Shown: positions 286-38,408, counted from the stretch's first letter. The stretch: DNA of 64,000 bases from Nitrosarchaeum sp. (GCA_965223865.1 OZ245020.1:1856001-1920000), one strand, 5' to 3'. Made by a program: numbers and translations. The notes: a model not told the origin generated them from the sequence alone.

Positions 286-1484
286 ATGAATCTCACAGAT
301 ACGCAAGAAAAATTCCCAGAAGTCAAAAATCAAGGAATACACAACTACTCAAGGCAAGTGGTATGCTACAAAAAAGACTGGAAAAGACAAATCAAGGAGA
401 TGTAGGAATTGCATTTCTCGAGAAACTTCACTTGAACGGCCTGGAAGACGGACGCATCATAGTTTATGGTGCACGGTTGCAGCTGATCTTAAAGCTGTTC
501 AACAAAAACAGAGTCAGACTGGCAGATGCTACAAAGTCAGACTGTGAGCGGGTTCTTTTTGCCATATTAAACACAAAGACAAACAAGGGAAGGTATTACA
601 GCGGAGAAAGCAAGGCAGCATATGCACTTGCTCTGTTGCGCCTTATTCACTATGCAAAGACAGGCGAAATTGGCAACAAGGATGAGGGCTATGTTGAGGA
701 AGTATCGTGGATTAGGCCAAGCAGATACAGAAACAAAGACGATGATGTATCCATTCTTCCTGAAGATCTTCTAACACCAGAAGAACTCTACTCTATTATC
801 GGCAAGACAAGAAACGAAAAGGAAAGAGCAATGCTGTGGGTTATGTTTGAAGGAGCGTTCAGGCCCGGTGAGCTGCTAAACCTTCGTGTGGGAGGAATCG
901 AGTTTAAGAGCAAATACATACTTGTCAGCACAATAGGGAAGACAGGAAAGAAGCGAGTTCCACTGGTATATTCTTTCAAGCCTTTGCTGGAGTGGCTCTC
1001 AAAGCATCCCCAAAGAAACGAGCCAAAGTCATACCTTTGGTATTCAGAGACATCAACACAAAAAAGAACGTCATACAGGTACCTGAGAAAGATACTGAAG
1101 CGATGTGCAACAGATGCACAGATCAAAAAAAGAGTATGGAACTACCTGATAAGGCACACACAGCTTACCATGCTTGCAAAGAAACTATCAGACCAGACAC
1201 TGTGCGTCTTTGGAAACTGGTCCAAGGGATCAAAGATGCCAGCAAGGTATGTTCATTTGTCAGGCAAAGACGTTGAAAATGCATTGCTTGAGCTTCACGG
1301 GATAAAAAATGAAGACGAAAATAAAACCAAAGTAATGTTTAGGGATTGTCCCAGATGTGCAGAGAAGAACACGCCAGATTCGCAGAGATGCTCAAAGTGC
1401 GGATTCATACTAGATGAGCAACTACTTTCAGTTGTAGCAGATTCAGAGCAAGAAATATTGCAAGATATGCATACGACAGTGTAG
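286..1484 (+). pseudogene. Tyrosine recombinase/integrase with C-terminal Zn ribbon; probably frameshifted near 360 and 3'-truncated
   Basis: ORF 363-1484 has AFRPGEL, GKTG, YLIRH, RYVHL and CPRC/CSKC. ATG 286 (after GGAGG) gives MNLTD...GIHNYSRQV in another frame. The 3' end runs into an antisense virB4 fragment. Confidence 0.8.
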
Positions 1485-1965
1485 ATGGCACTGCATGCAA
1501 AGTAAAACATTTGGCGTATTCTATTGGAATTTCTGCTGAGACTGCAGATTCATCAAAGTTTTCCTTAAAGTCATGAATGGTTTGAATTTCTAGTTTGTTT
1601 AGATGTTCTCTGATAATTTTGTAGTGTGGAGGTCTGCTGTTGTCAAGGTATTCGAGTTTTAGCCGTTCTAACATATCTCCTAGCGGCTCATTTGATTCCA
1701 GATGAACCTGCATTACAGGCATAACCATCTGATGTCCTTCCACCGTAACTGTTACTCCTCTTCGCGATAGCGTAATCTTGATTTTGTCTTGTATTACCCT
1801 CAAAATATCAAAGAATTTTCCAAGTTTTTCAGCCTGGTTTGTCTCAGACAGATTGGCAAAGTTGGTTGGAATTATGCTATAGCTGAATTGAAATTGTGGT
1901 TTTGGCTTTGATTTTACCTTAGGATTTTGTTTTTTGAGATTTTGTCCCAATAGATGCAGTTTCAC
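1405..1965 (-). pseudogene. N-terminal fragment of VirB4-like ATPase (paralog of 36468-38408)
   Basis: FQFSYSIIPTNFANLSETNQAEKLGKFFDILRVIQDKIKITLSRR matches FKYSYSIIPTNFVNLSEENQTQKMGQFFDILRVIEDRIKITMSRR; similarity stops at TLSYA (~1465). Confidence 0.9.
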
Positions 1966-2173
1966 ATCATATTAGAATCAATTATGATAAAAGCGGAGAA
2001 AAAATAAGCAGACAAAAAGAGATTAAGATCATTAGGAGTATTTGTGTTCTGGGGTTGGCACAGTAACACCTCATCATATTTGCAATAGCAATAATATCAA
2101 CAATTGCATTGTCTGCAAAGTCGACTCAACATTATGTCAAGAATGTAGTATTATTATACAATCCATTCATTTC

Positions 2174-2383
2174 TCATTTTTCTTTTGTAATTTCCAAAAC
2201 GCGTCTTTGCTGTTCGTCTAAAATCTTTTCAAATTCTTTTCTTAGAACATTCAGTTTTGATTCCTTGGATGGTTCATCAAGTGTTGAAAACTTTATTGCC
2301 TTTAGCTCTTCTGCAATTGCACCTAGTTTTTCGCTTGTCTCATATATGAGATCATCAATCAGCTTTTGTTTTTCTGGTTCCAA
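2174..2383 (-). CDS. Small helical hypothetical protein
   Basis: 69-aa ORF co-oriented with the module; charged helical composition. Confidence 0.6.
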   Translation of the reverse strand: MEPEKQKLIDDLIYETSEKLGAIAEELKAIKFSTLDEPSKESKLNVLRKEFEKILDEQQRRVLEITKEK

Positions 2384-2449
2384 GTCAGGTATAGTATGGC
2401 AAAGGTTGTAGTTATCTTTTGAGGATGTGTTATACTATATGATTTCTTT

Positions 2450-2890
2450 TTATTTTTCTAGTGTTCTTATTGTCTTTTTGTTGTGATGCCACGCAGTAAA
2501 ATGTAGGACAGCAATAATTGCAGCAATCAAGCTACTTGCCTGAACATCTATAGCTAAGTCATTCTTGTCAAACAAAAATGGCATAAACAAGACAAATGAA
2601 CTCTCTATTGACATTTGAATAGATACGGCAGCTACAGCATGAAATTTTGCATAAAGACTTTGAAACACAATATTTGACTCGTATTGCTTTATGAGATGTC
2701 TGTTTTGCAGTGTTATTCCCATGTCAAAAACAAAGGAGAGCACCCAAACTGCATACAGTAATGCCACAACCAACAGAGGAACGTCAAAATCAAACCAATA
2801 GTAAAAAAATAGAGGAGATGACAGAGCAGAAAGAAGCAGAATCAAGAACATGATTCTTTTGTGGAATCTCTTCTTGATACTAGGATTCAT
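2450..2890 (-). CDS. Multi-pass membrane protein of module copy A (paralog of 33680-34138)
   Basis: About 4 hydrophobic segments; shared DMxIT and YESNIxFxxLYAK motifs. Confidence 0.85.
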   Translation of the reverse strand: MNPSIKKRFHKRIMFLILLLSALSSPLFFYYWFDFDVPLLVVALLYAVWVLSFVFDMGITLQNRHLIKQYESNIVFQSLYAKFHAVAAVSIQMSIESSFVLFMPFLFDKNDLAIDVQASSLIAAIIAVLHFTAWHHNKKTIRTLEK

Positions 2891-2902
2891 TTCTACTGCT
2901 GC

Positions 2903-3253
2903 CTATTGTTTTCTGCTGGCAATCTCAATTGGTTCAATTCTGTATTGCACCGACTTTACAGCACCATATGCGATAAGGCCTACAGCGACTGCAATCAGAA
3001 TAAAGTTGTATCCGTCTGCAAAGATGTCCTTTACAGTATCAGTAAGTATGGCCGAACCATCACCGCAATGCTTTGCAGTTGTGCCTGACAATAGTCCAGT
3101 ATCCTTGATACAAAGGGATGCAACGTCTACACCAAGCACGTCAGGCACAACAGTAACCAGAATTATGATTCCTATCAGTGCAACTACGATCTTGATGAGA
3201 AATCCACCAATGGATTCTCCTTCCTTGAGATCACCACTTCTACTTTTCAGCAT
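2903..3253 (-). CDS. Two-TM pilin-like (VirB2-like candidate) protein, copy A
   Basis: MLKSRSGDLKEGES start shared with 33307; two hydrophobic helices; conserved Cys pair; CTTTTATCAAATT promoter about 25 nt upstream in both copies. Confidence 0.7.
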   Translation of the reverse strand: MLKSRSGDLKEGESIGGFLIKIVVALIGIIILVTVVPDVLGVDVASLCIKDTGLLSGTTAKHCGDGSAILTDTVKDIFADGYNFILIAVAVGLIAYGAVKSVQYRIEPIEIASRKQ

Positions 3254-3393
3254 CAATGTATAATGTGTAATTTGATAAAAGCCAGGAAAAAGTTCAAGTA
3301 ATTTGCTGCATAAATTACAGTCAACAATTTAGCAATATGATCAATTAATTTTCATAAGCCCTGTTGAAATGAAATTGTCTTTTGTAGATTTCA

Positions 3394-3531
3394 ATGGCAG
3401 CTGCCTCAAAAAAGAAAACAGCAACAACCACTGCAAAAAAATCTACAAGAAAAGCAACAACTGCAAAAAGAAAAACTGCAACAAAGAAAGCAACTACAAA
3501 ATCAATCACAACTAAAAAGACAAGAAAATAA
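3394..3531 (+). CDS. 45-aa Lys/Ala/Thr-rich basic protein (histone H1-like)
   Basis: Translates to MAAASKKKTATTTAKKSTRKATTAKRKTATKKATTKSITTKKTRK; below the ORF-track cutoff. Confidence 0.7.
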   Translation: MAAASKKKTATTTAKKSTRKATTAKRKTATKKATTKSITTKKTRK

Positions 3532-3552
3532 GAATAATAGCAGTAGATTAAA

Positions 3553-3849
3553 CTAAACCAACTTTTCTTTTTTCTTTTTGCTTAGTTCAATTCCAACCTG
3601 AATTAATGTTTGATAATTTTCATCATGAAGTTCATTTAGTTTTTGTAATTCCTTGTGATATTTTTTGTTTGTTTGCAAGTCTTTGTCAGAGAGTTTGGGC
3701 AAGTAAACATCACCGAATATCTTATGTGAATTTTTATTCACTCTTTCCTTTTGTTCTTTTATTTTTCTAATCTTTTCTGTTTGTTTTTCAAATATTTGCT
3801 CTAGTTCATTTATAGAATAATTAGCATAGTTGTTCTTCAATTCCTTCAT
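3553..3849 (-). CDS. Hypothetical coiled-coil protein
   Basis: 98-aa ORF overlapping the end of the upstream gene. Confidence 0.6.
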   Translation of the reverse strand: MKELKNNYANYSINELEQIFEKQTEKIRKIKEQKERVNKNSHKIFGDVYLPKLSDKDLQTNKKYHKELQKLNELHDENYQTLIQVGIELSKKKKEKLV

Positions 3850-4525
3850 CTACAATTATAGAAACATTACAATTTGAACATTTATCCAATGGAACTATCA
3901 TTATGTCTTTATCATTTACTGTAACAAAGTCTCTGCTAATTTCTTTACCGTCTGATAATATGCTGATCTGATTTTGCAGTAAGTCAACATCATAGATTTT
4001 CTCTAGTGGAGTAATTTTTAGTCTGTTGTTTGTTACTTCAATCTTTATGGGATTACTTTTCTCGTTTTGCCTCATCGATTTACCTTGGTTAATTTTTGCA
4101 AACAAACTTGTAATGAGATCAGTTATTGGCTTGCTGAAAAATTTCTTTTGAGGTTTTGCAATTACTATTTTTTTAGATGCTTGCCTCTTTGTTTGTTTCT
4201 TATTGACTGCAGTCTTTTTCATTTTCAGGTTTTCAGGCTTGTCTCTGCTTAGTGATGTTCCTCTTATCAGAAACATTAGATTTGCTTTTATCATCTGGTC
4301 AGGAGTCATTATCTTGGTGTTGACTAGCCCCAGTCCCAAAAACATGGTCAAAATCACGCCTGGAGCAATGAAATCCTTGGTAACAAAGTAGGCAACCATT
4401 GCGGCAAGCATTCCTGCAAGTATCATACCAAGCTGTCTAAACGACACTTTTCCAATTGGAAGTGGTAGCGCCTTCTCATGCATTATAGAATCATTTTCAA
4501 ATATTACTAGTTCAACATGTCTCAA
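3821..4525 (-). CDS. PrgI/VirB3-like membrane protein, copy A
   Basis: N-terminal GKVSFRQL followed by two TM helices, typical of PrgI-like proteins; paralog of 32250-33041. Confidence 0.7.
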   Translation of the reverse strand: MRHVELVIFENDSIMHEKALPLPIGKVSFRQLGMILAGMLAAMVAYFVTKDFIAPGVILTMFLGLGLVNTKIMTPDQMIKANLMFLIRGTSLSRDKPENLKMKKTAVNKKQTKRQASKKIVIAKPQKKFFSKPITDLITSLFAKINQGKSMRQNEKSNPIKIEVTNNRLKITPLEKIYDVDLLQNQISILSDGKEISRDFVTVNDKDIMIVPLDKCSNCNVSIIVDEGIEEQLC

Positions 4526-5961
4526 TATTCTGTATCCTCCAAAGAATTGTTGGGATTAGCTTTGTTAATTTTGATTGTAACCTTGTTTTTGAAATGAATT
4601 GTCTTGCTAAATGACTTTCTTTGTTGTTTTTGCAAATAATGATTTTTTATCACGTGTATTAATGAAATCTTTTTGAACTTGATGTATGTGAATAATCCAG
4701 CAACAATTATCAAGATAAAAATTCCAAATAGTGAGAAATTAAAAATCTCATTTTCCTTACTCGTGGTAGCATCAACGAGATTTGTAACAGTATCTAATTT
4801 ATCTACACCATCATCAAAATTATTATCAATAATGCCTTCTATCATGTCATCATTTGACATGACAGTGTCTTGTGCATTGACATTGTTATCTGTTACAGAC
4901 CCTTTTTGATTAGAAATATCATCTGTTGTATCCTTGAAATTAGAAATTACATCATTAGTATTATCACTAAGGTTTGAGTCAGCTGTAAAATCACTGACTG
5001 CCAAATCAGTGTCTAGAAGATTGTTTTCGTCAGCATTATTCTCAACAATATCTACTGTTGACATGGCGTTGTCTTTTTCTATATTGTCTGGTTCATCTTG
5101 TGATACGTATGAAAGCAATTCAAATTCAAACACTTTGAATGGTTTTGTTACATGAACTGGACTATACTTTACACCAGATAATGGAAAAGGAATGTCGGGA
5201 GTTACCAAATATGATGTTGTAACATCATCATGCGTATTGGTAATGTCTACATCATATCCTATCTTGTAAACATTAGAAAATATTTTTTCAGTAGATGTTA
5301 TTGAATTATCATTATAATCTACCATATTCAGTGTTGCAGAGTATTCCAAACTGTCATCAAATACTTTCATGTGGGGGTTTGAATCAAAATCCAAGGATTC
5401 AGTAACTGTTCCCCATATCGAGCCTGCTTTGAGCAGTTTAGGCGCCTCTGCATACTTGAAAATTGAGAATATTGTGTTCTCTATGGATTGAGCATATTGT
5501 ATGGTGTCTGGATGAATTGCACTAGCTGACTTTACGTCAAAATTCTCAGGGTTTATGTGAAATATTGAACGCTTAATTGAATTGTCTGAGATGTTACTAA
5601 TTGAGACATTTGCCACCCAAATGTGGTTATCAATCTGATCACCAGTATCAGAAGACAGAAAATTGACAAAATCTAATTTTATTACATAGCATAGACTAGA
5701 ATTGTGGTCCAGGTTTTTGGTAAAGTAATGATAATTTTCAGAGGAATAATCAGGAATGTGATGAGGATCACAAATTTTGTATGTGTAAGAATCACCGACA
5801 GACAAATTCTTTCCCAGATGCCACATTCCATCTTGATATAGAACAGCAATCTGTTTGTTATAGTTAATTGAGTACGCTTGTGGAATTATGACATTGTATG
5901 AAATACCAAATATTGTGATAATTACAATAGACAGCGATAGATAAATCCTGAATTTTTTCAC
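4522..5961 (-). CDS. Membrane-anchored surface protein with acidic stalk, copy A
   Basis: Signal peptide, conserved N-domain (GKNLSVGDSYTYKICDP), D/N/T-rich linker, C-terminal TM; paralog of 30666-32060. Confidence 0.85.
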   Translation of the reverse strand: MKKFRIYLSLSIVIITIFGISYNVIIPQAYSINYNKQIAVLYQDGMWHLGKNLSVGDSYTYKICDPHHIPDYSSENYHYFTKNLDHNSSLCYVIKLDFVNFLSSDTGDQIDNHIWVANVSISNISDNSIKRSIFHINPENFDVKSASAIHPDTIQYAQSIENTIFSIFKYAEAPKLLKAGSIWGTVTESLDFDSNPHMKVFDDSLEYSATLNMVDYNDNSITSTEKIFSNVYKIGYDVDITNTHDDVTTSYLVTPDIPFPLSGVKYSPVHVTKPFKVFEFELLSYVSQDEPDNIEKDNAMSTVDIVENNADENNLLDTDLAVSDFTADSNLSDNTNDVISNFKDTTDDISNQKGSVTDNNVNAQDTVMSNDDMIEGIIDNNFDDGVDKLDTVTNLVDATTSKENEIFNFSLFGIFILIIVAGLFTYIKFKKISLIHVIKNHYLQKQQRKSFSKTIHFKNKVTIKINKANPNNSLEDTEY

Positions 5962-6014
5962 AAAAAAATTATCTGGATTTCTTTAAAAGTAAAAAAAAGA
6001 AAAAGTGGAAATTA

Positions 6015-6143
6015 TTAGTTAAGAATTGAGGTCTCTATCTTTTGTATTGGATGATTGAATATGTCGTGATGGGTGGCAGCTATCTGTTCTTTGTTAAAAG
6101 TAAGGGCACATCTGTAGCATCTCCAAGAGGTAGCAGTCTGCAT
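6015..6143 (-). CDS. 42-aa C2H2-type zinc-finger microprotein, copy A
   Basis: MQTATSWRCYRCALTFNKEQIAATHHDIFNHPIQKIETSILN; near-identical paralog at 28303-28431. Confidence 0.85.
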   Translation of the reverse strand: MQTATSWRCYRCALTFNKEQIAATHHDIFNHPIQKIETSILN

Positions 6144-6236
6144 CGATTTGGTATCGAGTTTCACAATATAACATTGACGTATGATTTATCGTTGATTTAA
6201 GGACAATACGTAGTCTCTATAGATTTTGATTGGAAA

Positions 6237-6311
6237 TTATTCGTTATCGTCAATGAAAATCCAAGATAATCCTTGTACTTCTTCCCAGGATGACGAGTTT
6301 GATTGGTTCAT
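6237..6311 (-). CDS. 24-aa micropeptide, copy A
   Basis: MNQSNSSSWEEVQGLSWIFIDDNE; paralog at 30559-30630; shared upstream TGAATCTTTTATACAAA promoter. Confidence 0.7.
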   Translation of the reverse strand: MNQSNSSSWEEVQGLSWIFIDDNE

Positions 6312-6635
6312 GGTACCTTTTTGCAAAATTTGTATAAAAGATTCAAGAATGATTCATTCATATCGATAAACAGCATTATCTAAATAGTATTGTCACGTTA
6401 TTAGATGTACCAAGATGTGGAGCTGTCATCAAAATTCCTGATCGGTTTTGGTCTTAAGCTCCAGTAATCATTGTAAAATCGAGTCATTTTTCGTTTTTTA
6501 ATTCTGTTTGGCAATCATCATCGAACCTCTACAGTTACTTTTGCTGAAATTTTCACGAATACAGAATGTAATTCACACGCCTAAAAATACCACTATTGAA
6601 TCAATCCTATGTTTGGTGCGATGTGTCACCAGTCA

Positions 6636-6791
6636 TCATGCAGGCCAGTCATCTCGACCGACTGCATATGATTTTCTGACATTTTTGATAATTTCTGCCA
6701 ACCTATTGTTAATCTCGTTATGATCGTGGTCGTCCATCTCTAGAATTTCCCTAAACTCCTGGATTAGCTCTTCCTTGTTTTCTTGAATCAT
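6636..6791 (-). CDS. 51-aa helical hypothetical protein, copy A
   Basis: MIQENKEELIQEFREILEMDDHDHNEINNRLAEIIKNVRKSYAVGRDDWPA; paralog at 27498-27647. Confidence 0.8.
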   Translation of the reverse strand: MIQENKEELIQEFREILEMDDHDHNEINNRLAEIIKNVRKSYAVGRDDWPA

Positions 6792-6864
6792 CAAGTCCTA
6801 CAAACTATAATTTGAGTTATTGATAAGCGTTTAGTGTTTTCTTTTATTTTAACAGATGTCAATA

Positions 6865-28699: not shown

Positions 28700-30317
28700 T
28701 TGAAACTTCACTCATTTGTCATTACGACGTTTATCTTTTTTTCATTGGGTTCTATGTCACTGATATTCACAAATATGTCATTTGCAGAAAGTGAGAAAAA
28801 AAGCATGATTGTGACGCCTCTTGGCACCTACGAATCAGGCATATACGACAAAGCCGGTGCAGAAATAGTGACACATGATCATACAACTCAACGTCTGTTT
28901 GTCACAAATGATCATTCTCAAACTATAGATGTACTTGATATTAGTAATCCAAAAAACCCCATACTGGAATTCTCCATAGATGTTACACCATATGGTAATT
29001 TGGTCAACAGCATTGATGTGCATAACCAAATCATTGCAGCTGCAATAGAACCTGAATCACACGACCATCTTGGCAAAGTAGTTTTTTTTTGATATACACG
29101 GAAATTACTTGAATGGTGTTCAAGTAGGTTTTCTTCCAGATATGTTGACCTTCACTCCTGTAGGTGACAAGATACTGGTTGCAAATGAGGGAGAACCCAA
29201 ATCTTATTGTAATGATAGCCAAAATGATCCTGAAGGCTCAATAAGCATAATTGACATATCAAACAACAAAATACAAAATCCTATCGTTACTGCTATAGGT
29301 TTTGATCAGTTTAATGGACAAGAAGAAAAACTGCAAGAAAAAGGAATCAGAATATTTGGTCCAGGTGCCACATCTGCACAAGATTTAGAACCAGAATACA
29401 TTACGATTTTACCTGATGGCAAAACAGCAGCAATAAGCCTGCAAGAAAATAATGCAGTAGCAATCCTGGATATTGATTCAGCACAAATAACAGAACTACT
29501 GCCTATGGGATACGTAGATCATAGCATCTTAAAAAACAAGATTGATGCAAGCGATGAGGATGGTAAAATCAACATTTCAAACTGGCCAGTCAAGGGAATG
29601 AGACAGCCTGACGGGATTGACTCTTTTGTTGTAAATAATGACATATTTTTGATCACTGCAAATGAGGGAGATCCTCGAAATTATGGTTGTATAGTCAATT
29701 ATGAGGATACAGAAGAGGAAAAGGTATCAGATATTTTATTGGACTCTGATTCATTTCCAGACAAACATATACTGCAAAAAGATGAAAATCTGGGACGTCT
29801 GAAGGTAAGCTTGCTAGAAGGCGATACTGACAACGATGGCGATTACGATGAACTCTTCACATTTGGCAGCAGGTCATTTTCCATATGGACTGTTGATGGC
29901 CAGCTAGGGTATGATAGTGGAGATGACTTTGAACAGATTATTGCATCCAAGTTTCCAGACAACTTTAATGCAAATCACTACTACAACGAATTTGACAAAC
30001 GAAGTAACAACAGGGGCCCTGAACCTGAAGGAGTGATTGTTGAAAGAATAGGTGCAAAACAGTTTGCATTTATTGGTCTTGAGAGAATGGGTGGAATGAT
30101 GATATATGACGTAACTAATCCATATAATCCAGAATTTGTTGATTACATAAACAACAGAAACTTTGCAGTAGATCCTTCAAAAGAATTGTCTGGTGCAGGG
30201 GACCTTGGACCAGAAGAACTCTTGTTTATACCCAAATATCACAGTGCTATAGACAATCCTCTACTAGTAGTTGCAAATGAGGTAAGTGGAACTATAACCA
30301 TTTACAAAATTGAATGA
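28700..30317 (+). pseudogene. Choice-of-anchor I / alkaline-phosphatase-like beta-propeller, frameshifted at T9
   Basis: AEIV, LPDMLTFTP, VANEGEP, DLEPEYI, QPDGI, ANEGD, FGSRSFSI, GPEPEG; split at 29082-29090. Confidence 0.9.
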
Positions 30318-30558
30318 ATCAATCATTCAATTTTCTTTTATACTATTTCACATATTGTAGTTTGGAATTCACACGGTGGAGTCATTCAGCCGTTTAACCG
30401 ACCATATACCTACTAGGGTTGGGCAATATTGGCCCAATTCTAAATTATTGTTATTCTATGATCAAAGAATATGGTTTTATTTTTTCATACTTTTCACTGA
30501 TGATTTGTATGAACAAATTATTTTTGAATCTTTTATACAAACTTTGTAAAGAGATGTC

Positions 30559-30630
30559 ATGAATCAATCTAATCTAACTTGGGAAAAAGTGCAAGGATTA
30601 TTGTGGATATTTGTTGAAGATAACGAATAA
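30559..30630 (+). CDS. 23-aa micropeptide, copy B
   Basis: MNQSNLTWEKVQGLLWIFVEDNE. Confidence 0.7.
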   Translation: MNQSNLTWEKVQGLLWIFVEDNE

Positions 30631-30665
30631 TCTCGTTACTTTTAAAGAAATTCAGATAGTCTTTT

Positions 30666-32060
30666 GTGAAAAAGATAAAGATCTACCTTCCTTTACTTGT
30701 AATTATAGTAACAACAATTGGACTGACATTTGATATTATAATTCCAAATGTTTATTCGTTGACTCCGCCATCATACAATGAACAGATTTCTGCATTATAT
30801 CAGAACAATATGTGGCAACTAGGCAAAAACCTGTCTATTGGCAATTCATACACCTACAAAATTTGTGATCCTTCTGCAATACTGAATTATTCAGCTGAGA
30901 GTTACCATTACTTTACAAAAGATCTGGAGCACAACTCTAGTCTGTGTTATATCATAAAACTGGACTTTGTCAACCTACTAAATTCAGATGAAAACCAGAT
31001 TAATAGTGACATTTGGGTGGTTCAAGCCTCAATAAGTGATGTTTTCGGTACAGATAATCCCATAAGACGCTCAGTTTTCCATGTTGATTCTGATACTTTT
31101 GAGGTCAGATCAGCTGATACTATTCATCCAGATACTATAAGATACACTCAATCCTTGGAAAACACGATATTTTCAATTGTAAAATACACTACATCTGAGC
31201 CCAAATTTCTGCAACAAGGAATCAAGTGGGGTGAAGTCACTGAATATTTGGATAAAATGCAAATCAATCCATACATGGAAGTGTTGCAAGATGACTTAGA
31301 ATTTTCTACAATTCAAAATGCTGTGGATTATTCTCAAAATAAACTAATCAAAACAGAAAAGACGTTTGATGTATACAAGGTAGGATATGAAATTGACATC
31401 ATTGATGCTGATCTACGAGAAGAAAATACAAACAATGTAATTAACTATTATCTCATTCACTCACAATTTCCATTTCCATTATCAGGAACCTTATACAGCC
31501 CAGCTCATGTAGTAGAGCCATTCAAAGAATATGAGTTTGAATTGATTTCGTTTATTTCATTTAATGTAATTGAAGAAGATAATTCAATTGAAGAAACTTA
31601 TAATCTAATTGATGATGTCATAGATGAGTCTATTGATAACAATATTATCGATCCAGTGATTGAAGATATTGTAATTGATAACACAGTAGAAGACAATATT
31701 GTTGATGATGTCATTGATGATGATCCTGTGCTGATTGACGATACAACAGATGAAGTTGTTCCAGAAAATGTAGATGCCGATGACATAGTTGATGAGATAA
31801 TAGACGATGACGATATTATAGTTGAAAATATTGTTGAATCTGCGATTGATGATAGTAAAAACAACAATCCATCCGTTACTAATGTGATTGGTCTTGTATT
31901 GTTATTGGCGGTTACAATTGGTGGATTTGTATATTACAAGAAATTCAAAGACAAGAATTTAAAATCAACTAAGAATAATAATTTCAAATCTGATTCAATA
32001 ATCAAAACAGTTCACTTCGATGATAGGATTACAATCAATATCAAGAAAAAACAACAATAA
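30666..32060 (+). CDS. Membrane-anchored surface protein with acidic stalk, copy B
   Basis: Paralog of 4522-5961. Confidence 0.88.
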   Translation: MKKIKIYLPLLVIIVTTIGLTFDIIIPNVYSLTPPSYNEQISALYQNNMWQLGKNLSIGNSYTYKICDPSAILNYSAESYHYFTKDLEHNSSLCYIIKLDFVNLLNSDENQINSDIWVVQASISDVFGTDNPIRRSVFHVDSDTFEVRSADTIHPDTIRYTQSLENTIFSIVKYTTSEPKFLQQGIKWGEVTEYLDKMQINPYMEVLQDDLEFSTIQNAVDYSQNKLIKTEKTFDVYKVGYEIDIIDADLREENTNNVINYYLIHSQFPFPLSGTLYSPAHVVEPFKEYEFELISFISFNVIEEDNSIEETYNLIDDVIDESIDNNIIDPVIEDIVIDNTVEDNIVDDVIDDDPVLIDDTTDEVVPENVDADDIVDEIIDDDDIIVENIVESAIDDSKNNNPSVTNVIGLVLLLAVTIGGFVYYKKFKDKNLKSTKNNNFKSDSIIKTVHFDDRITINIKKKQQ

Positions 32061-32249
32061 CGATATTTCGACATTCATTAAATAATTGTATGATCTTTGG
32101 TCGATTACACTTATGTTCATCCATGTCTAATATGGTCTAGGGAGGACCAATAACGTCTCTAACCCGTAAGCCGTTCCAAAATTCGCCTGAATTTTAGGTT
32201 CTCCCATTTCTTCCTTTTATGCAAATGACCATCATATTTTAGAAATCTG

Positions 32250-33041
32250 ATGAGGCACGTTGAGCTAGTAGCGTTTGAGAACGACTCCATTTTGCACCAA
32301 AAGGCCCTGTCATTGCCTGTAGGCAAGGTGTCATTAAGACAGTTGGGAATACTGGTTGTAGGAATACTGGCTGTATTTTCAACCTATGCAATCACTGACA
32401 ACATCATTGTGCCTGCAATACTTTTTGCAGTATTTCTGGGAATTGGTCTGCCAAACACCAAGATAATGACGCCAGATCAGATGATAAAAAGTGTGATTTT
32501 GTTTCTGATTAGAGGAACATCACTTTCAAAGAAACCAGAGTATATGCAAAAAGATGGGAAATTAAAATCAAATTCTAAAGAACAAAAAGATAACCAGAAC
32601 AACTACATTCAAAGCTCTGAAATCCAGTCAAACAACAACACCATAATGTCAAAAATCATCTCACAACTAGAATCTCTTTACAAAAAGAAAGAATCAACAG
32701 AATCAAAACAAGATAAAAACATTGTAACAACCAACAAGGACAAGAACTATTCTGTCAAAGTAGAATTAACTCCAGAAAATATGTTAAACATAACTCCAAT
32801 AAAGACAATAAGAAACAAAAATCACGAGAGCAATTCAATTGATAAACTACTAAGCTCATTGACAACTTCAAAAAATAATTTACATGATCAGAAAGATTCA
32901 GACTTTTTACAGGAACATATGTCTATTTTGTTAGATAATAATAAAATAGAATCAGACAAAATTATATCAAAAAATGATTCTGCTTCTGTTCTCTTGGATA
33001 AAAATTCAAAGTATGACATTGAGATAATTGTGGATAAATGA
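32250..33041 (+). CDS. PrgI/VirB3-like membrane protein, copy B
   Basis: MRHVELVAFENDSILHQKALSLPVGKVSLRQL plus two TMs and NTKIMTPDQMIK. Confidence 0.7.
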   Translation: MRHVELVAFENDSILHQKALSLPVGKVSLRQLGILVVGILAVFSTYAITDNIIVPAILFAVFLGIGLPNTKIMTPDQMIKSVILFLIRGTSLSKKPEYMQKDGKLKSNSKEQKDNQNNYIQSSEIQSNNNTIMSKIISQLESLYKKKESTESKQDKNIVTTNKDKNYSVKVELTPENMLNITPIKTIRNKNHESNSIDKLLSSLTTSKNNLHDQKDSDFLQEHMSILLDNNKIESDKIISKNDSASVLLDKNSKYDIEIIVDK

Positions 33042-33306
33042 CAGCTTCAAATTAAAACGTCATAGATAAAAACTTCACTGTCAATTGATCACTTTTTCTT
33101 TAATAGAATTATTGTGTTATGTTACATGTTCATGCAAATAGGGCCTGTATTGTTGTTGACGTAACATGAAGATGGTGTGGTAACAGTAAACCTTGCTTTT
33201 CGAATATCTGGTCCTATTTCGTGAAAAGTAGGTGAATCTGCCATGTTATTTTATTGCTGTTGCCACATTATTTTTTGCCTTTTATCAAATTCAACATGTA
33301 CAGTTA

Positions 33307-33669
33307 ATGCTGAAAAGTAGATCAGGAGACCTGAAGGAAGGCGAGTCCTTTGGTGGTTTTATTGCCAAGCTTGCAGTCGCTTTGGTTGCAGTGATAATAG
33401 TTGCAACAATCGTGCCTGATGTGTTGGGCCTGAACATTGCCGAATTGTGTGTTGAAGAAGACACCATACTGGGAGGCATAACCGGCAACCACTGTGGTGA
33501 TGATTCTGTGTTCTTGACTGATGCAGTCAAAACAATCGTAGGTGACGGATACAGTATGCTGCTTGTGCTGATTGGCCTTGCATTCATAGGATTTGGTGCC
33601 TACAAAGGTGTTCAATACCGAATACTCAGTTCTCCTGAAGAAATCAAAACAACCGAAAAAAGACAGTAA
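33307..33669 (+). CDS. Two-TM pilin-like protein, copy B
   Basis: Paralog of 2903-3253; start placed by conservation. Confidence 0.7.
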   Translation: MLKSRSGDLKEGESFGGFIAKLAVALVAVIIVATIVPDVLGLNIAELCVEEDTILGGITGNHCGDDSVFLTDAVKTIVGDGYSMLLVLIGLAFIGFGAYKGVQYRILSSPEEIKTTEKRQ

Positions 33670-33679
33670 CAATAAGAAA

Positions 33680-34138
33680 ATGAATTACGTTACCAAAAAA
33701 CCTCAAAAATCAACTGTATTTTTGGTGATGTTTTACTCGTTGTTGCTGTCTCCTCTATTTTTTTACATATGGGTTTTTGAAAGGCCAGAAATTCCAATAG
33801 TTTTGATAGTTTCCTTGTATTGTGTTTGGCTAGTATCGATGATTATGGATATGAGAATCACTTTGTCCATAAAAAGTCTAATTGTGTTGTATGAATCAAA
33901 CATAATTTTTAGAAATCTTTATGCAAAGTACAGACCAGCTGTTGCAATTCTAATACAGCTATTAGTTGAAACATCGTTTGTCTTGTTGATTCCATCTTTG
34001 ATTTTTCCACGTGAGTTTGGTGTAAAATTATTTTTTGATTATCAAACATCTGCAGTTTTGGCTGGAATTATCAGTGTAATTCATTTTATGGCATGGAGAA
34101 ATAACAAGAGGATGATACGATTGATTAAAGAGATTTAG
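33680..34138 (+). CDS. Multi-pass membrane protein, copy B
   Basis: Paralog of 2450-2890. Confidence 0.85.
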   Translation: MNYVTKKPQKSTVFLVMFYSLLLSPLFFYIWVFERPEIPIVLIVSLYCVWLVSMIMDMRITLSIKSLIVLYESNIIFRNLYAKYRPAVAILIQLLVETSFVLLIPSLIFPREFGVKLFFDYQTSAVLAGIISVIHFMAWRNNKRMIRLIKEI

Positions 34139-34313
34139 AAGATATCGAATACAAATTCTTTAATTTCTTTATAGCCTTTTATTTGAGCGATGAGAACTGT
34201 ATGTAAGGATAAACATGATGATGATTATGAACAAAACATACACGTTAGAAAACCGTATGTTGTTGAGCACTTTATTCAATGTCTCTTTTGTAGACTTTGA
34301 CAGAAACAAAGAA

Positions 34314-34416
34314 AAGCTGTAAAAGCTGTAAGAAATTTGGGATTTAGATTTATTTTTTAGCTAATATTTTTTTAAAAAATATTTGGAGAGGAGAAAACAT
34401 ACAGCTTTTACAGCTT
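34314..34416. repeat. Perfect 17-bp inverted repeat flanking an AT-rich palindromic core
   Basis: AAGCTGTAAAAGCTGTA (34314-34330) and TACAGCTTTTACAGCTT (34400-34416). Confidence 0.9.
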
Positions 34417-34587
34417 CTAGGCATGAACAGGCTTAAGTCCTTAACATAATTTTACATTGATGTTGCTAGAATCAAACAGCGTAATCTCTTCATATTAAGA
34501 GGTTCAACTGGTTCGAACCTTATGACTAATCGAGTTCATATGGACTTCACATGTTAATTTTCAGTCTTTGTTCCAAGTTTTCAGTAG

Positions 34588-34728
34588 CAATATACACTCT
34601 CATCTGATTTGTTAAATCTAAACATGATGGATTTTCTTAACAATTTACTTCCTGTAACATTAGGAAATATAGTGGGAGGTTCAATTTTTATCAGTCTTTC
34701 GTACTGGATTTCATATATTCGAAAATAA
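34588..34728 (+). pseudogene. C-terminal remnant of a formate/nitrite transporter (FNT)
   Basis: [23 protein letters not shown] is the FNT C-terminal signature; in-frame stop just upstream. Confidence 0.75.
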
Positions 34729-34803
34729 TTCAGATGAATGATGAAAATGTAATGTGAACCAAAAATTGATCATGTTAAAATAAACCTATGACTCACCAAG
34801 GGT

Positions 34804-35397
34804 ATGTCTACTAACTATAAAGAAAAGATCGGTGAACTCGTTGGAGTGGAAGTAATAGAGAAGAATGGTATTGATGTTGAGAAACTAAGAAATCTACTTT
34901 TAGCAGGAGTAGGAGCTGAATTTACCACATATTACTACTACACAATCCTCCGAATGCATTGCACTGGACAAGATGGAGAGGGTCTCAAAGAAATAGTTGA
35001 AGATGCCAGAATTGAAGACAGAAATCACTTCGAAGCAATGGTTCCAAGACTATACGAGATTGGAGGTGCACTTCCCAGAGACATCCGAAAATTCGCTGAT
35101 GTGGCGGGGTGTCCTGACGCATTCCTACCAGACAACTGGGAGAATGTAGAAGAGATTCTCAAGGTTCTTCTTGAAGCAGAAAGATGTGCAATCCGTTCTT
35201 GGGGCGAAGTATGTGACTATACAATGAACAAAGACCATAGAACTTATGCTATTGCTCAGGCAATTATGCAAGAAGAGATTGAACATGAAGCTTGGTTTGT
35301 AGAACTCCTAACCAAGAGACCATCGGGACATTTCAGACGATCATTTGTTGGTCAATCCCCACACACAAAGGGACAAGGTGGATTAATACACCTGTAA
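34804..35397 (+). CDS. DPS-like (DpsL) ferritin-family protein
   Basis: [13 protein letters not shown]...[12 protein letters not shown]...ERCA...EEIEHEAWF...PSGHFRR. Confidence 0.92.
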
Positions 35398-35433
35398 GAA
35401 TTTATAAAAATTCTTCTTTTATTTTTATTAATC

Positions 35434-35790
35434 ATGTTTCGTATCTGTAAGGCTGCAGAAATTAAAGACAACTCTATGAACAAGTTTACTGTAGATAAAA
35501 AGGACATTCTTGTAGGGAAAAGAAACGGTAAGTTATTTGCTTGTGATAATTGGTGTCCTCATAGAGGAGCATCTATGCACAAAGGTTTCTACAAGGAAGA
35601 CAACATAGTTTGCTATATGCATGATTATGAGTTTGACATTGAATCAGGAAAACTCACTAACATGAAGTCTTGGAAAAAAAGTGATACTTGGGTTGAACAG
35701 AATCCTGCATGGAGAGCATCAGGCGATCTTATTATGTATGATGTTGAGATAATGGGTGATGATATTTACCTTAAACTCCGAGAAAAATAA
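35434..35790 (+). CDS. Rieske [2Fe-2S] ferredoxin
   Basis: CPHRG...CYMH. Confidence 0.9.
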   Translation: MFRICKAAEIKDNSMNKFTVDKKDILVGKRNGKLFACDNWCPHRGASMHKGFYKEDNIVCYMHDYEFDIESGKLTNMKSWKKSDTWVEQNPAWRASGDLIMYDVEIMGDDIYLKLREK

Positions 35791-35829
35791 TCTACTCAAG
35801 TTTTTATTTATAAATTCAAAATATACATC

Positions 35830-36099
35830 ATGGTTAAAAAACGAAAACCTGTACTTTTCATTGATGATAGCAAGGAATCAAGTGCCGCCATCCAGTTACT
35901 AGAAAATGAAAAAATTGAATATACTCCTTATCACATTAAAAAATTTGAAGAAAGTTGTTGCGGAGAAGTTCCAACTACTACAACACCATCAGTTTTTGCG
36001 CCAGATGGAGTCTTTCAAGGCTTTGATGGAGTTAGAGATTATATCGTCTATAGAAAAAGTGAACAATATGATGATGAAAGTCCAAGTGCATACTGGTAA
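35830..36099 (+). CDS. Small glutaredoxin-like protein
   Basis: Thioredoxin-like layout (TPSVF...GFDGVRDY) without canonical CxxC. Confidence 0.55.
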   Translation: MVKKRKPVLFIDDSKESSAAIQLLENEKIEYTPYHIKKFEESCCGEVPTTTTPSVFAPDGVFQGFDGVRDYIVYRKSEQYDDESPSAYW

Positions 36100-36137
36100 A
36101 TGAGTATCAACATTACTGGAAATTTTAGGGGCATAAA

Positions 36138-36317
36138 ATGGATCCTGAAAAAAGAAAAGAGTATCTAAAAGAATATCGTTCTAGGCCAGAAGTCAAGGAA
36201 CATGAGAAGCAATACAGAAAAGAGTATTACTCAAGACCAGAAATTAAGGAACGGCAAAATGCATATCAACTACAGAGATACATAGAGAATAATCTAAAAA
36301 GAGAAAAAAAGAAATGA
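36138..36317 (+). CDS. 59-aa basic protein with internal repeat
   Basis: KEYRSRPEVKE / KEYYSRPEIKE. Confidence 0.55.
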   Translation: MDPEKRKEYLKEYRSRPEVKEHEKQYRKEYYSRPEIKERQNAYQLQRYIENNLKREKKK

Positions 36318-36467
36318 AAAGATTCACAGATTTTAGAAGTTACTTATTATGTAAAAACATATTTTCTTAAACGATTAAATTTTGATTGATATTTTAAGAA
36401 ATTATTTTTAAAATTATAATTGCATTTCAGATACTTTTCCCTTTTATTAAATTCAATATCATAATTT

Positions 36468-38408
36468 GTGAAATCGATTTCAATCCTTTCAAAGGAGAAA
36501 AATAAACAAAAGAATAATCAAAATACAAATTCAGTCAAGAAAACTGACAATAACGATCCAAATCAATTCAAGTACAGCTATAGTATAATCCCAACCAACT
36601 TTGTCAATTTATCAGAAGAAAACCAGACACAAAAGATGGGACAGTTCTTTGATATTCTAAGAGTCATAGAAGACAGAATCAAAATTACAATGTCTCGAAG
36701 GATGGTTCCCATAACTGTAGAAGGCCAGACAGTAGACATGCCAGTTATGCAAATTCATCTAGAATCACATCAGCCACTAAGTGATGTTTTAGATCAAATT
36801 AAGGTAGAATACATTTCAGGTGACAGGCCGCCAAAAAGTCAGATTGTAAGGGAAAATCTCAGTAATATGGAAATTATTCAAACTGTTCATGAAAATAATG
36901 ATAATGAATTTGTTGAAAATAATTACAACAATTCAATTTTTGCCCAATGTTTTTCGCTCTATAATCTTCCTGCCACTTTACCATACGCATGGATCACCAA
37001 CATCTTTGGATTGTGTTCACAAGTTCAGATTATGATAAATCCTGTTGCAAAGGATGAGGCCATTACACGAATGGTCAGATTCAAAAATATCATCTATGAG
37101 GATTCCAAAAAAGACAGATCTACAGCTGAGCTTTACAAAAGGGCTGATGATACTGAAAATTCTCTGAGACGAGATGATACTGGACTGTATGAATGTGTAA
37201 TCAACTGTATGGTCACTGCACAAAACAAAAAACAGTTACATGATAATTCTAAATTATTTAAAAAACAAGTAAAAAGATATGGTGGCTCATTTGGTGTGGT
37301 TTCAGCAAAACAGGCTGCAATGTTAATTGAGGGATATGGCAAGAAACTAACGTTAGATAGAGGAAGTTGTGTAATTTTGTATTCATTTGTATCAGCTGAC
37401 ATGCTGGAAATTCCAAACGGAATACCATTGGGAATCAACATGATATCAAAGGGACCAGTTATTTTTGATATTGCAAAAAGAACAAACTATAACATTGCAG
37501 TAATTGGAAAAAGCGGTTCAGGAAAATCATTTACTGTAAAGATTTTACTAAACAGATTACACCAGAAATTTCCATACTCTCACATCTTTGTGATTGATCC
37601 TATGGGAGAATATGGTGCAATCTCCCAGTTTTTTGGAATGCAAAATTTGAACATCACCAAAAATGATGAACATTTGGGATTGGATCCGTTTGTTTTACTG
37701 GAACCGCAGGATGCAGCTGACATTCTGGCAGAGATGACTAATGCGCCAGACACCACAAAGATACAGTTTCAAAAGTATTGTGACAAGGCAAAAAACATGA
37801 AGGAATTTTATGACAAATTAACACCAAGACACAGAAAATATCTGGATCATCTGATGGATGGTCCTCTGTCTAGAATAATCCTAGGAGAACCAAAACTGAA
37901 TGACTCCAAGAAAATTATCATTTCAATGGATGGTGCAACTGGAAATGATTCAGAATCAATGGTACTCGTGTTGTTGTTAAATAAGATTTTCAAGATTTGT
38001 AATCAATTACCAACTAAAACAAGAAAGATTTTGGTGATTGATGAGGTATGGATGTTATTCAAGATGCCAGGAGCTGCAAAGTATGTCAACATGATAGTGA
38101 GAATGGGCAGGAAACTAAACATCAACTTTATCTTTATTTCACAAAGAATCGAGGACATTTCAAAAGAGGATGACACTGGAATTGGAAAAATCATAGACAA
38201 CATGGAGACCAAAATCATTTTGGGATTGGAAGAACAGGCAGCTGAAACTGCAAGAAAAGTTTTGAATTTGTCAGATCAGGAAACCAGCAAACTAAAGTCA
38301 TTTAATCGTGGTCATGCATTGTTTTTGACTAAAAATCATCGAATTCATGCAAAGTTTGAACCTACTTCACAAGAAAAAGAGATGTTTGATACGACACCTT
38401 TGGAATAA
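36468..38408 (+). CDS. VirB4-like conjugative-transfer ATPase
   Basis: NYNIAVIGKSGSGKS (Walker A), VIDPMGEY, ILVIDEVW (Walker B), RMGRK, ISQ, GHALF. Confidence 0.9.
   Translation: MKSISILSKEKNKQKNNQNTNSVKKTDNNDPNQFKYSYSIIPTNFVNLSEENQTQKMGQFFDILRVIEDRIKITMSRRMVPITVEGQTVDMPVMQIHLESHQPLSDVLDQIKVEYISGDRPPKSQIVRENLSNMEIIQTVHENNDNEFVENNYNNSIFAQCFSLYNLPATLPYAWITNIFGLCSQVQIMINPVAKDEAITRMVRFKNIIYEDSKKDRSTAELYKRADDTENSLRRDDTGLYECVINCMVTAQNKKQLHDNSKLFKKQVKRYGGSFGVVSAKQAAMLIEGYGKKLTLDRGSCVILYSFVSADMLEIPNGIPLGINMISKGPVIFDIAKRTNYNIAVIGKSGSGKSFTVKILLNRLHQKFPYSHIFVIDPMGEYGAISQFFGMQNLNITKNDEHLGLDPFVLLEPQDAADILAEMTNAPDTTKIQFQKYCDKAKNMKEFYDKLTPRHRKYLDHLMDGPLSRIILGEPKLNDSKKIIISMDGATGNDSESMVLVLLLNKIFKICNQLPTKTRKILVIDEVWMLFKMPGAAKYVNMIVRMGRKLNINFIFISQRIEDISKEDDTGIGKIIDNMETKIILGLEEQAAETARKVLNLSDQETSKLKSFNRGHALFLTKNHRIHAKFEPTSQEKEMFDTTPLE

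Follow-up and report, generated by a model that had tools for sequence, protein, structure and literature searches.

Background

Conjugation in Gram-positive bacteria is carried out by type IV secretion systems (T4SSs) such as that of pCF10, in which PrgI, PrgJ and PrgH are the VirB3, VirB4 and VirB6 proteins and PrgB is an adhesin. The ammonia-oxidising archaea are globally important and genetically intractable, and we know of no case in which conjugation has been shown in them. Putative integrative-conjugative elements (ICEs) of Thaumarchaeota were reportedly described by Abby et al. in 2018. Krupovic et al. 2019 presented ten putative thaumarchaeal ICEs, most of which encode both VirB4 and VirD4 (PMC6563490). 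According to the text of that paper, these elements contain VirB6, VirB3, TadC, FlaI/PilT, a prepilin peptidase and pilins but no relaxase, TFIIB is found in all of them and often precedes a ParB-like gene, and one element is nested in another. They have been cited as known conjugative elements of Nitrososphaeria in a paper according to whose text neither a pilin nor a relaxase can be recognised in any archaeal conjugative plasmid (PMC9905601). Here, we analysed a stretch of 64,000 nucleotides (nt) of Nitrosarchaeum sp. (GCA_965223865.1, OZ245020.1:1856001-1920000), called the window in the following. Its positions 216-47351 form an island that is very probably a composite and degraded ICE of this Nitrosopumilus-like ammonia-oxidising archaeon, with the mating-pair-formation operons of two lineages of one ICE family placed head to head.

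The island and its sister elements have much in common with the published thaumarchaeal ICEs as the text of PMC6563490 describes them: integration at a tRNA gene, a tyrosine integrase, VirB4 and VirD4 ATPases, VirB6- and VirB3-like proteins, a prepilin-peptidase-like gene, TFIIB, the absence of a relaxase, Usp/CBS stress cargo, a size of tens of kilobases (kb), and elements nested in or stacked on each other. The first-pass annotation of the window had called the system uncharacterised, which has to be withdrawn because putative ICEs with the same component set were already published in 2019 (PMC6563490). Unlike in those elements, two inverted, degraded transfer operons of different lineages share one island here, synteny of the operon is strict within the genus, in contrast to the little synteny reported between the published ICEs, and there are two large surface proteins that the main text of the paper does not mention (PMC6563490). 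Among the papers listed by a full-text literature search for Nitrosopumilus together with VirB4, none deals with this module. New here are the composite architecture with its inversion, a clearly recorded decay, the strict synteny of the operon, and the two conserved surface proteins. In kind, the island itself is ordinary, and as a self-transmissible element it is probably dead.

The resemblance extends to the monoderm T4SSs of the pCF10 type, because the VirB4 of the island is best matched by monoderm-type VirB4s, there is a weak PrgI match and a polytopic VirB6-like protein, and the large anchored protein has immunoglobulin (Ig)-like domains resembling those of PrgB (PDB 8beg) and of the antigen I/II (AgI/II) adhesins, although at the level of the fold only (Z 7.6-8.4). 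In contrast to these systems, no cell-wall hydrolase, VirB8-like protein or relaxase was recognised here, and the proteins are anchored by a C-terminal transmembrane (TM) helix and not by sortase, in a host with a surface layer (S-layer) instead of peptidoglycan. [quoted passage not shown] However, Ced and Ted are presented there as chromosomal, conserved import systems (PMC9905601), whereas the module analysed here is located on mobile islands.

A site-specific insertion at tRNA-Glu

A tRNA-Glu(CTC) gene is located at 140-215 on the plus strand (ARAGORN; 60.5 bits with the Rfam tRNA model). The last 21 nt of the tRNA-Glu region (196-216), the left attachment site attL, are repeated exactly at 47331-47351 on the plus strand (attR), and this repeat is the only long match of the tRNA region within the window. 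In the genome G030, which belongs to the same genus, the identity to the window is 94% for the 3 kb to the left of the tRNA end and 93% for the 3 kb to the right of 47351. The two flanks are joined there directly over one att copy, the left one reaching to 1905508 and the right one starting from 1905506. Because of the exact 21-nt repeat and the flanks that abut with a single att copy in G030, the region 216-47351 is a 47.1-kb site-specific insertion at tRNA-Glu.

The island thus has the combination of integrase and direct att repeats at a tRNA gene that is expected of a thaumarchaeal ICE (PMC6563490). The tyrosine integrase carries a C-terminal zinc ribbon (363-1484, plus strand; Pfam Phage_integrase 2.6e-16) and aligns with 57% identity to residues 52-414 of the 442-amino-acid (aa) integrase of a related element of the same genome, here called element C. 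Its catalytic part is intact, the first ~50 codons lie in another frame starting from the ATG at 286, and the last ~28 residues are missing. Host core genes start beyond ~48.9 kb with a tRNA-splicing endonuclease-like protein, a ribosomal protein and tRNA-Gly (protein names as read from the translations). At the gathering threshold, Rfam finds two tRNAs and nothing else in the window. In G003 and G073, which are from the same genus, these tRNA-Glu flanks are separated by ~15 kb and ~18 kb, respectively, and tRNA-Glu therefore appears to be a recurrent integration site.

Two inverted copies of a transfer operon

Within the island, two inverted and diverged sets of the same genes had been noticed in the first-pass annotation, and these are indeed present. 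When the minus-strand open reading frames (ORFs) of 1405-9462 (copy A) were compared by BLASTP with the plus-strand ORFs of 24803-38408 (copy B), eight protein pairs in the same order were obtained with identities of 39-83%. A repeat search of the window at the DNA level found collinear inverted matches between 1645-9321 and 25001-36815, which are 55-978 nt long and 71-84% complementary. Examples are 8130-9107 with 25212-26189 (978 nt, 72%), 6001-6143 with 28303-28445 (83%), 5647-5862 with 30774-30989 (73%), and 1645-1896 with 36564-36815 (71%). The two copies are inverted around 15.3 kb.

All genes of copy A are on the minus strand and all of copy B on the plus strand. The large surface protein has 865 aa in copy A (6865-9462; tandem Ig-like beta-sandwich domains in the AlphaFold2 model) and 864 aa in copy B (24803-27447, frameshifted; 86% identical to locus L038 of G030), and the two are 67% identical over 842 residues (E = 0). 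A stretch of 40 residues that had been quoted for both shows the 34 matches also in our translations, and a crude hydropathy scan agrees with both proteins being anchored, since each has an N-terminal and a C-terminal hydrophobic segment. It is followed by small ORFs, which in copy B encode 77, 61, 66 and 42 aa (27414-28431). The first of these is 58% identical to the 52-aa protein of copy A (6636-6794), and the last (28303-28431) pairs with the 49-aa Cys/His micro-ORF of copy A (6015-6164), which is the best-conserved piece of all (83% identity at the protein level with E = 3e-26, and 83% at the nucleotide level). Copy A lacks the 66-aa ORF, which is found again in the elements C, D, E and F. 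The second surface protein has 479 aa in copy A (4522-5961) and 464 aa in copy B (30666-32060; 75-77% to loci of G030), with 42% identity between them, and is built in copy A from a signal-like N-terminus, a globular part of ~290 aa, an acidic linker, and a C-terminal anchor. The PrgI/VirB3-like membrane proteins have 234 aa (3821-4525; Pfam PrgI E = 0.0014, 19.6 bits with a cutoff of 27) and 263 aa (32250-33041; E = 0.0044), share 39% identity, and have two adjacent TM segments in the hydropathy scan. The same scan finds the two hydrophobic segments claimed for the pilin-like protein with its conserved Cys-containing loop (117 aa, 2903-3256, and 145 aa, 33232/33304-33669; 53%). The next protein (146 aa, 2450-2890, and 181 aa, 33593-34138; 41%) had been described as a 4-TM protein. 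It is polytopic, as proposed, but three segments were found and not clearly four. The eighth pair is VirB4, of which copy B has a full-length 646-aa protein (36468-38408; Pfam P-loop_TraG 2.8e-17, DUF87, AAA_10). Here, the homology of 54% is limited to residues 24-174 of a 186-aa ORF in copy A against residues 33-182 of copy B.

The ~15 kb between the copies had been taken as cargo, which is true for a part of it, while another part is element backbone with a TFIIB gene and a VirD4 remnant. Similarly, different cargo had been assigned to the inside of each copy. Copy B does have such insertions (28700-30317 and 34804-36099), but there is almost none in copy A. Upstream of the ~470-aa gene, non-coding blocks are 78-84% identical between the copies (6233-6373 with 30497-30634, and 6159-6213 with 28233-28287). 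Their order relative to the Cys/His micro-ORF differs between the copies, and they may represent regulatory DNA.

The copies belong to different element lineages

Copy B is 71-91% identical to copies of G030 in all six genes compared, but only 39-67% to copy A. The closest relative of copy A is found in the genome G091 for three of the six genes (large protein 77%, pilin-like protein 93%, small membrane protein 68%). The synonymous differences between A and B are saturated (proportion of differing synonymous sites, pS, 0.70-0.76), and the synonymous distances (dS) to the respective relatives are 0.5-0.9 for B and G030 and 0.7-1.5 for A and G091, all determined with the Nei-Gojobori method. The ratio of nonsynonymous to synonymous distances (dN/dS) is 0.06-0.23 in 14 of the 15 pairs, which are all those for which it was computable. 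The host flanks of the present genome (G000) and G030 differ by 6-7%. We also calculated a maximum-likelihood tree of 16 large-protein sequences, in which long outgroup branches were flagged that have no bearing on the ingroup nodes. Copy A groups there with G091 and with the inverted copy of element D, a second copy within G000 (support 95/95), copy B with a G030 copy (87/98) close to element D and another G030 copy, and element C with copies of G030 and G073 (100/100). Judged from these comparisons, A and B are two element lineages that have been brought together, and given the saturation at synonymous sites, against a difference of only 6-7% in the host flanks, they are far older than the residence of the island at this site.

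Decay of the island

VirB4 had been reported for both copies. However, copy A does not contain the ATPase but just an N-terminal fragment (1405-1965, minus strand; 54% to residues 33-182 of copy B), which lacks the ATPase domain and any Pfam match and abuts the 3' end of the integrase gene. The homology to VirB4 stops after about residue 174, near 1444, inside the integrase 3' end on the opposite strand. This junction is spanned with 0 differences by contigs assembled from three sequencing runs of three studies, X1 (216-1828), X5 (869-1766) and X7 (1419-1595). A single deletion comprising the integrase tail, the 250-aa gene, VirB6, and two thirds of VirB4 would explain it. The VirB4/TrbE-like ATPase expected of an ICE is therefore represented by the 646-aa protein of copy B, with copy A contributing a fragment only.

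On the side of copy B, the gene of the large protein contains a 1-nt shift in a T-run at ~27385, inside the C-terminal anchor, and its ORF stops at 27397. Read in another frame, the anchor goes on and matches the G030 orthologue. The VirB6-like membrane protein has been reduced to a C-terminal stub of ~57 residues (39141-39311, plus strand), which is 54% identical to residues 546-602 of the 605-aa protein of L038 (E = 3e-15); there is no other VirB6-like protein in the window. It is followed by a conserved 241-aa element protein on the minus strand (39327-40052) without an informative Pfam match, which is 41-71% identical to the VirB6 neighbours in element C and L038 and whose family comes after VirB6 in sister elements. 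In three other loci, a tRNA-Ile(GAT)-like gene of 87-93 nt is located between the VirB6-like and the ~250-aa genes (L038:4428-4515 of G030, L040:2913-2999 of G091, and L015:5314-5406 in element E of G000), but not in copy B of the window. One of the cargo genes of copy B, a choice-of-anchor-I gene (28700-30317, plus strand), is split into ORFs of 130 aa and 402 aa and has an inverted, intact 534-aa paralogue at 40526-42130 on the minus strand (77-79% identity at the nucleotide level; Pfam choice_anch_I 3.7e-130).

The VirD4/TraG-like coupling protein is also a remnant (14438-15896, plus strand), as found by tblastn with the 1058-aa protein of element C. Residues 4-431 (14462-15757) are joined to residues 1012-1058 (15756-15896), so that ~432-1011 with the ATPase domain are gone. 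A VirD4/TraG-like ATPase is thus missing from the window, with full-length homologues present in the elements C and D. The 1317 nt from 14438 to 15754 are 100% identical to the intact VirD4-like gene of element D (G000:C1:734287-735603), whereas the flanks of this patch are ~70-80% identical to element D (70% for the DNA to the right). The right end of the patch coincides with the junction of the VirD4 deletion. The patch looks like a recent transfer from element D, by gene conversion or patch transfer between co-resident elements, that was joined to an older tail. In X1, the depth of the unitig that covers 14951-15754 is about double that of the adjacent ones, which would be expected if there are two copies. 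One X1 contig fits the window to the right of 15754 and continues leftward with at least 255 unlike letters. It may derive from a sample variant whose VirD4 is different and perhaps undeleted.

As VirB4 of copy A, VirB6, VirD4 and the large gene of copy B are damaged, the evidence points to a non-autonomous relic that cannot run a transfer machine alone. The integrase core and the att sites might still permit its excision.

Element C and other elements of the genome

The module is present at about seven places in the 2.0-Mb genome (2.01 Mb), with five matches to VirB4 and eight to the large protein in a search of the genome with its own proteins. The copy that is compact and uninterrupted and has all seven module genes is that of element C (C1:1606961-1615022; tblastn). 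In element C and the sister genomes the order of the module is large Ig-like protein, small ORFs, ~470-aa protein, PrgI/VirB3-like protein, pilin-like protein, small polytopic protein, and VirB4. Beyond VirB4, the canonical layout continues with a VirB6-like protein, a ~250-aa protein and the integrase, and a VirD4-like ATPase lies upstream of the operon. Element C encodes a TFIIB-like Zn-ribbon protein (weak, Pfam E = 0.0058), proteins of 392 aa and 241 aa without Pfam match, a weak prepilin-peptidase-like candidate (Peptidase_A24 E = 4.3e-4, below the cutoff), and the 1058-aa VirD4-like protein (TraG-D_C 29 bits with a cutoff of 22, TrwB_AAD_bind 23.7 with a cutoff of 20.5, and DUF87 above the cutoff). 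The module itself is followed by restriction-modification cargo, a 618-aa polytopic protein, a 260-aa protein, the 442-aa integrase, and tRNA-Ser(CGA). A 15-nt repeat of the tRNA-Ser end at a distance of 70.5 kb is a candidate for the distal att site. Element C is therefore an apparently intact, complete ICE, and it provides a better parts list than the pair of copies in the window, which had been proposed to define it. The system had also been called either incomplete or atypical. Of the two, incomplete applies, given the VirB6-like and VirD4-like genes in sister elements and their remnants here. Tblastn found no homologues in the window of the 392-aa protein, which is encoded 3' of the TFIIB-like gene in element C, of the 241-aa protein from the same element, or of its peptidase-like protein.

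The remaining copies are less complete. Element D (~729.5-754.5 kb) has a full VirD4-like gene, a B-like large gene and two N-terminal fragments of the ~470-aa protein, and is without VirB4. At G000:C1:741579-754474 (L013, L014), its B-type large gene (plus strand) is paired with an inverted, frameshifted A-type gene (minus strand), again without a VirB4 between them. In element E (~853-866 kb), VirB4, VirB6 and the integrase are all present as fragments and the large gene is partial, and small remnants of the module are found near 646.5 kb and 369 kb.

Distribution among related archaea

We searched 151 genomes of the family including G000, in which close kin are counted as separate genomes, with thresholds of E <= 1e-10 for VirB4 and E <= 1e-5 for the large protein; a few of the weak matches are much longer proteins. 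VirB4 was found in 41 of these genomes (12 of 27 genera) and the large protein in 37 (also 12 of 27 genera). Both are present in 36 genomes, VirB4 alone in five, the large protein alone in one, and neither in 109. The surroundings of VirB4 were surveyed in 17 genomes, using 20 loci with VirB4 in the middle of a 20-kb stretch. Of these 20 loci, 13 include the large protein, and 13 include the VirB6-like protein. All five loci of the same genus have retained the full gene order. In other genera, the large gene is located downstream of VirB4 in eight loci, and in four of those it is followed by the ~470-aa gene. The expectation that the genes co-occur elsewhere was thus borne out.

A survey of the class comprised 201 genomes, with G000 excluded from the counts of the large protein. 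The profile of the large protein matched 33 of 114 genomes of the home family, all five of a second family of the same order, and none of 81 in twelve other families. VirB4 is present in 10 of these 81. Among the genomes searched, the distribution identifies the large surface protein as an order-specific addition to a wider VirB4 system.

Identity of the module proteins

The ATPase of copy B is VirB4-like and closest to the conjugative families. The best NCBIfam models are VirB4_plasma of the mycoplasma ICE (1.1e-27) and the CD1110 clostridial VirB4-like model (5.8e-27), followed by TraC (4e-23) and VirB4_CagE (3.8e-20). All of these scores are under the equivalog cutoffs, as expected of a distant branch. 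In Pfam, P-loop_TraG reaches 62.9 bits (cutoff 25.8), and DUF87 and AAA_10 are also above their cutoffs. The closest solved relative is the C-domain of Thermoanaerobacter VirB4 (4ag5, 3.2e-19). A non-conjugative ATPase of the HerA/FtsK kind was considered and ruled out, because HerA (2.1e-5), FtsK_SpoIIIE (3.6e-4) and the HerA-like chains in the PDB (7e-7 and 8e-5) score far worse than the VirB4 models (1e-27) and the VirB4 structure (3e-19). An ATPase locus of the Ced/Ted type was likewise discarded: the CedB model gives 3.9e-8 and 32 bits with a cutoff of 700, and the locus is a patchy insertion. The proposal of a T4SS-like DNA-transfer module holds, as the ATPase is far closer to conjugative VirB4 families than to HerA/FtsK.

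The other membrane proteins are more difficult to assign. The PrgI-like gene encodes a two-TM hairpin and is located three genes upstream of VirB4. Seven of eight members of the family match PrgI (PF12666) at E <= 0.05, the best with 0.0011, but all below the cutoff (19.6 bits in copy A and 18.0 bits in copy B with a gathering threshold of 27 bits). The PrgI/VirB3-like assignment is therefore weak but consistent. A search with the profile of this family against the PDB sequences returned SecE only (E = 0.0092), which we regard as chance. The 618-aa protein of element C has no match in Pfam or the PDB sequences. It was modelled with AlphaFold2 from 28 sequences (pLDDT 64.8), and the first five ranks of a Foldseek search against the PDB are all TrwI/VirB6 chains of the R388 T4SS (probability 0.96-1.00, E 0.06-0.24, TM-score on the target 0.39-0.47). 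Independently of Foldseek, VIA-align places the VirB6 chain 7o3v_F at rank 1 of 48,161 representatives (Z 8.0, root-mean-square deviation 5.8 Å), aligning 222 of 261 residues to the model residues 76-319, while the other top rows are short helical hairpins. A Z of this size does not decide the matter alone for a helical bundle. Because the two structure searches agree and the gene has a fixed place between VirB4 and the integrase, we regard the protein with moderate confidence as VirB6-like. The pilin-like protein matched nothing in Pfam, NCBIfam or the PDB sequences, solved pilins included, and aligning it to the VirB6-like protein by hhalign gave a probability of 0.6%. For the small polytopic membrane protein there was no match in Pfam or the PDB sequences.

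The large surface protein has no match in Pfam, NCBIfam or the PDB sequences either, and its 116 homologues are all unnamed proteins from Nitrosopumilus and Nitrosotenuis records without a Pfam domain. The AlphaFold2 model (49 sequences) has a pLDDT of 72.5, which is near 90 for residues 40-350, and consists nearly completely of beta structure. Foldseek matches it to strings of Ig-like domains such as contactin (2.7e-8) and titin, to the Ig-like part of PrgB at rank 9 (3.7e-6), and to the S-layer protein SbsC, with low TM-scores as expected of beads on a string. With VIA-align, the C-domain of BspA is first (Z 8.4, 211 residues aligned), followed by the C-termini of S. mutans antigen I/II, Gram-positive pilins, and PrgB (Z 7.6, 308 aligned), and Z values of 7.6-8.4 are middling by the scale of the tool itself. 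According to the model, the protein is composed of tandem Ig-like domains of a kind common in surface adhesins, and we draw nothing further from it. The ~470-aa protein has no match in Pfam or NCBIfam, and none of its 147 homologues is named or has a Pfam domain. Leads from the ESM Atlas were given no weight (for the large protein Ig-like/CARDB with 0.84, for the ~470-aa protein a 'peptidase family' cluster without a name with 0.91).

Proposed mechanism and alternative explanations

In an intact element, the integrase would excise the DNA at the tRNA repeat, the VirD4-like ATPase would deliver it, and VirB4, VirB3 and VirB6 would build the membrane translocon. The two anchored surface proteins would make or stabilise the contact through the S-layer, comparable to the adhesins of Gram-positive conjugative plasmids. 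The later history of the island would comprise the deletion in copy A that reached the integrase and removed the VirB4 ATPase, VirB6 and its neighbour, and, on the side of copy B, the reduction of VirB6 to a stub, the loss of the ATPase domain of VirD4, and the frameshift in the large gene. While these lesions, the insertion, the separate lineages, the homologies and the co-occurrence of the genes can be read directly from the genomes, we infer conjugation, the roles of the surface proteins, and the order of the rearrangements. The proposed transfer cycle is drawn from what is established for T4SSs and from the published account of archaeal elements.

It could be imagined that the operon of a single element was duplicated in situ in inverted orientation and diverged within the island afterwards, as the copies are only 15.3 kb apart in one att-bounded island and have the same gene order. 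We regard this as extremely unlikely, because each copy has closer relatives in other genomes than its partner, the tree puts A and B into different supported clades, and the synonymous sites between them are saturated while the host flanks are 93-94% identical to the genome with the empty site. The same composite could also have had another history, in which the integrase and the tRNA-Glu site came with the element of copy B and copy A is an inverted fragment of a second element that landed directly behind the integrase. This history is possible but rather doubtful. Element E has integrase fragments, large protein and VirB4 fragments on one strand, the integrase of the window is 60-63% identical to the fragments of element E compared to 57% to element C, and the TFIIB gene, the remnant of VirD4 and copy B all run collinear with it. 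However, the identities differ little, an intact B-type element next to an integrase was not encountered, and the junction is explained by one deletion running from the 3' end of the integrase gene into VirB4, provided that copy A had the layout of element C (integrase, 250-aa protein, VirB6, VirB4). It is unlikely that the island is still a working unit that uses the VirB4 of copy B and both sets of membrane and surface proteins and obtains the missing parts from element C in trans. The VirB4 of copy B is of full length, the integrase has kept its catalytic part, VirD4-like and VirB6-like genes are present in the same cell on element C, and all module genes have dN/dS values of 0.06-0.23. These low values mostly reflect the history before the copies met, though, and there are five independent lesions (VirB4 of copy A, VirD4, VirB6, the large protein of copy B, and the split cargo gene). 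In addition, the proteins differ by 33-60% between the element types, which makes cross-complementation uncertain. Finally, the module might not be conjugative at all but a domesticated DNA import system of the Ced/Ted type, or a device for surface adhesion or secretion. Ced and Ted, according to the text of PMC9905601, also join VirB4-, VirB6- and VirB2-like proteins, the large protein is adhesin-like, and no relaxase was seen. This is very unlikely given that the genes are located in att-bounded, integrase-bearing insertions with empty sites in relatives, are patchily distributed (41 of 151 genomes), exist in many decaying copies, and are accompanied by a VirD4-like coupling protein. CedB scores far below the conjugative VirB4 families, and a missing relaxase is the rule in archaeal conjugative elements as the text of PMC6563490 describes them.

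Several points weigh against the interpretation as a composite, decayed ICE or parts of it. We know of no experiment demonstrating conjugation in a thaumarchaeon, and the published thaumarchaeal ICEs are themselves called putative (PMC6563490). The identity of VirB3 is based on PrgI scores below the threshold and that of VirB6 on structural scores of middling size (E > 0.05 with Foldseek, and a Z of 8.0, in the case of a helical bundle), and the pilin-like, small membrane and ~470-aa proteins match no family in sequence searches. The frameshift in the large gene of copy B is located in a homopolymer and could be a sequencing error, and among the pieces listed no contig spans the ends of the identical patch at 14438 or 15754. 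Element C could mobilise the island in trans if the integrase works from an internal start. The integrase may originally have belonged to copy A, which would need the layout of element C and one deletion, or to copy B with the layout of element E.

Tentatively, the two anchored surface proteins could be dedicated mating-contact parts of a conjugation machine specific to the Nitrosopumilales and thus the S-layer counterpart of the aggregation substances of the PrgB type. If so, they and element C would provide ammonia-oxidising archaea with their first parts list for conjugation that is both complete and testable, and the identical 1317-nt patch together with the second inverted pair of A- and B-type genes (741-754 kb) would point to an ongoing shuffling of surface genes between co-resident elements. 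The apparently intact element C beside the dated wrecks of its relatives indicates which genes of the transfer operon are conserved, and both large surface proteins accompany VirB4 across one order. The genome also shows how such elements decay and recombine, and it offers candidates for a gene-delivery vehicle and for structural work.

Other contents of the island

The TFIIB homologue between the copies (12357-13286, plus strand; Pfam TFIIB repeat 3.2e-40) is collinear with copy B, and the genome contains many TFIIB paralogues. Between the membrane-protein genes and VirB4 of copy B, at a position that is empty in the elements A and C, there is cargo on the plus strand (34804-36099) consisting of a ferritin-like protein (Pfam Ferritin 3.9e-23), a Rieske protein (1.9e-17), and an 89-aa protein without Pfam match.

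Two plus-strand segments in the right part of the island (40394-40416 and 46544-46568) resemble tRNA 3' ends, but neither matches any of the 37 tRNA 3' ends predicted by ARAGORN in the genome at <= 3 mismatches. The former is found again close to the ends of element E (with 3 mismatches) and of an element of G030 (with 1 mismatch) and may represent an element terminus that is conserved. Two adjacent genes for secreted or surface proteins of 372 and 443 aa, the former without Pfam match, are located in the most GC-rich part of the island (43804-46281; 0.445), which lies between attR and the last element gene.

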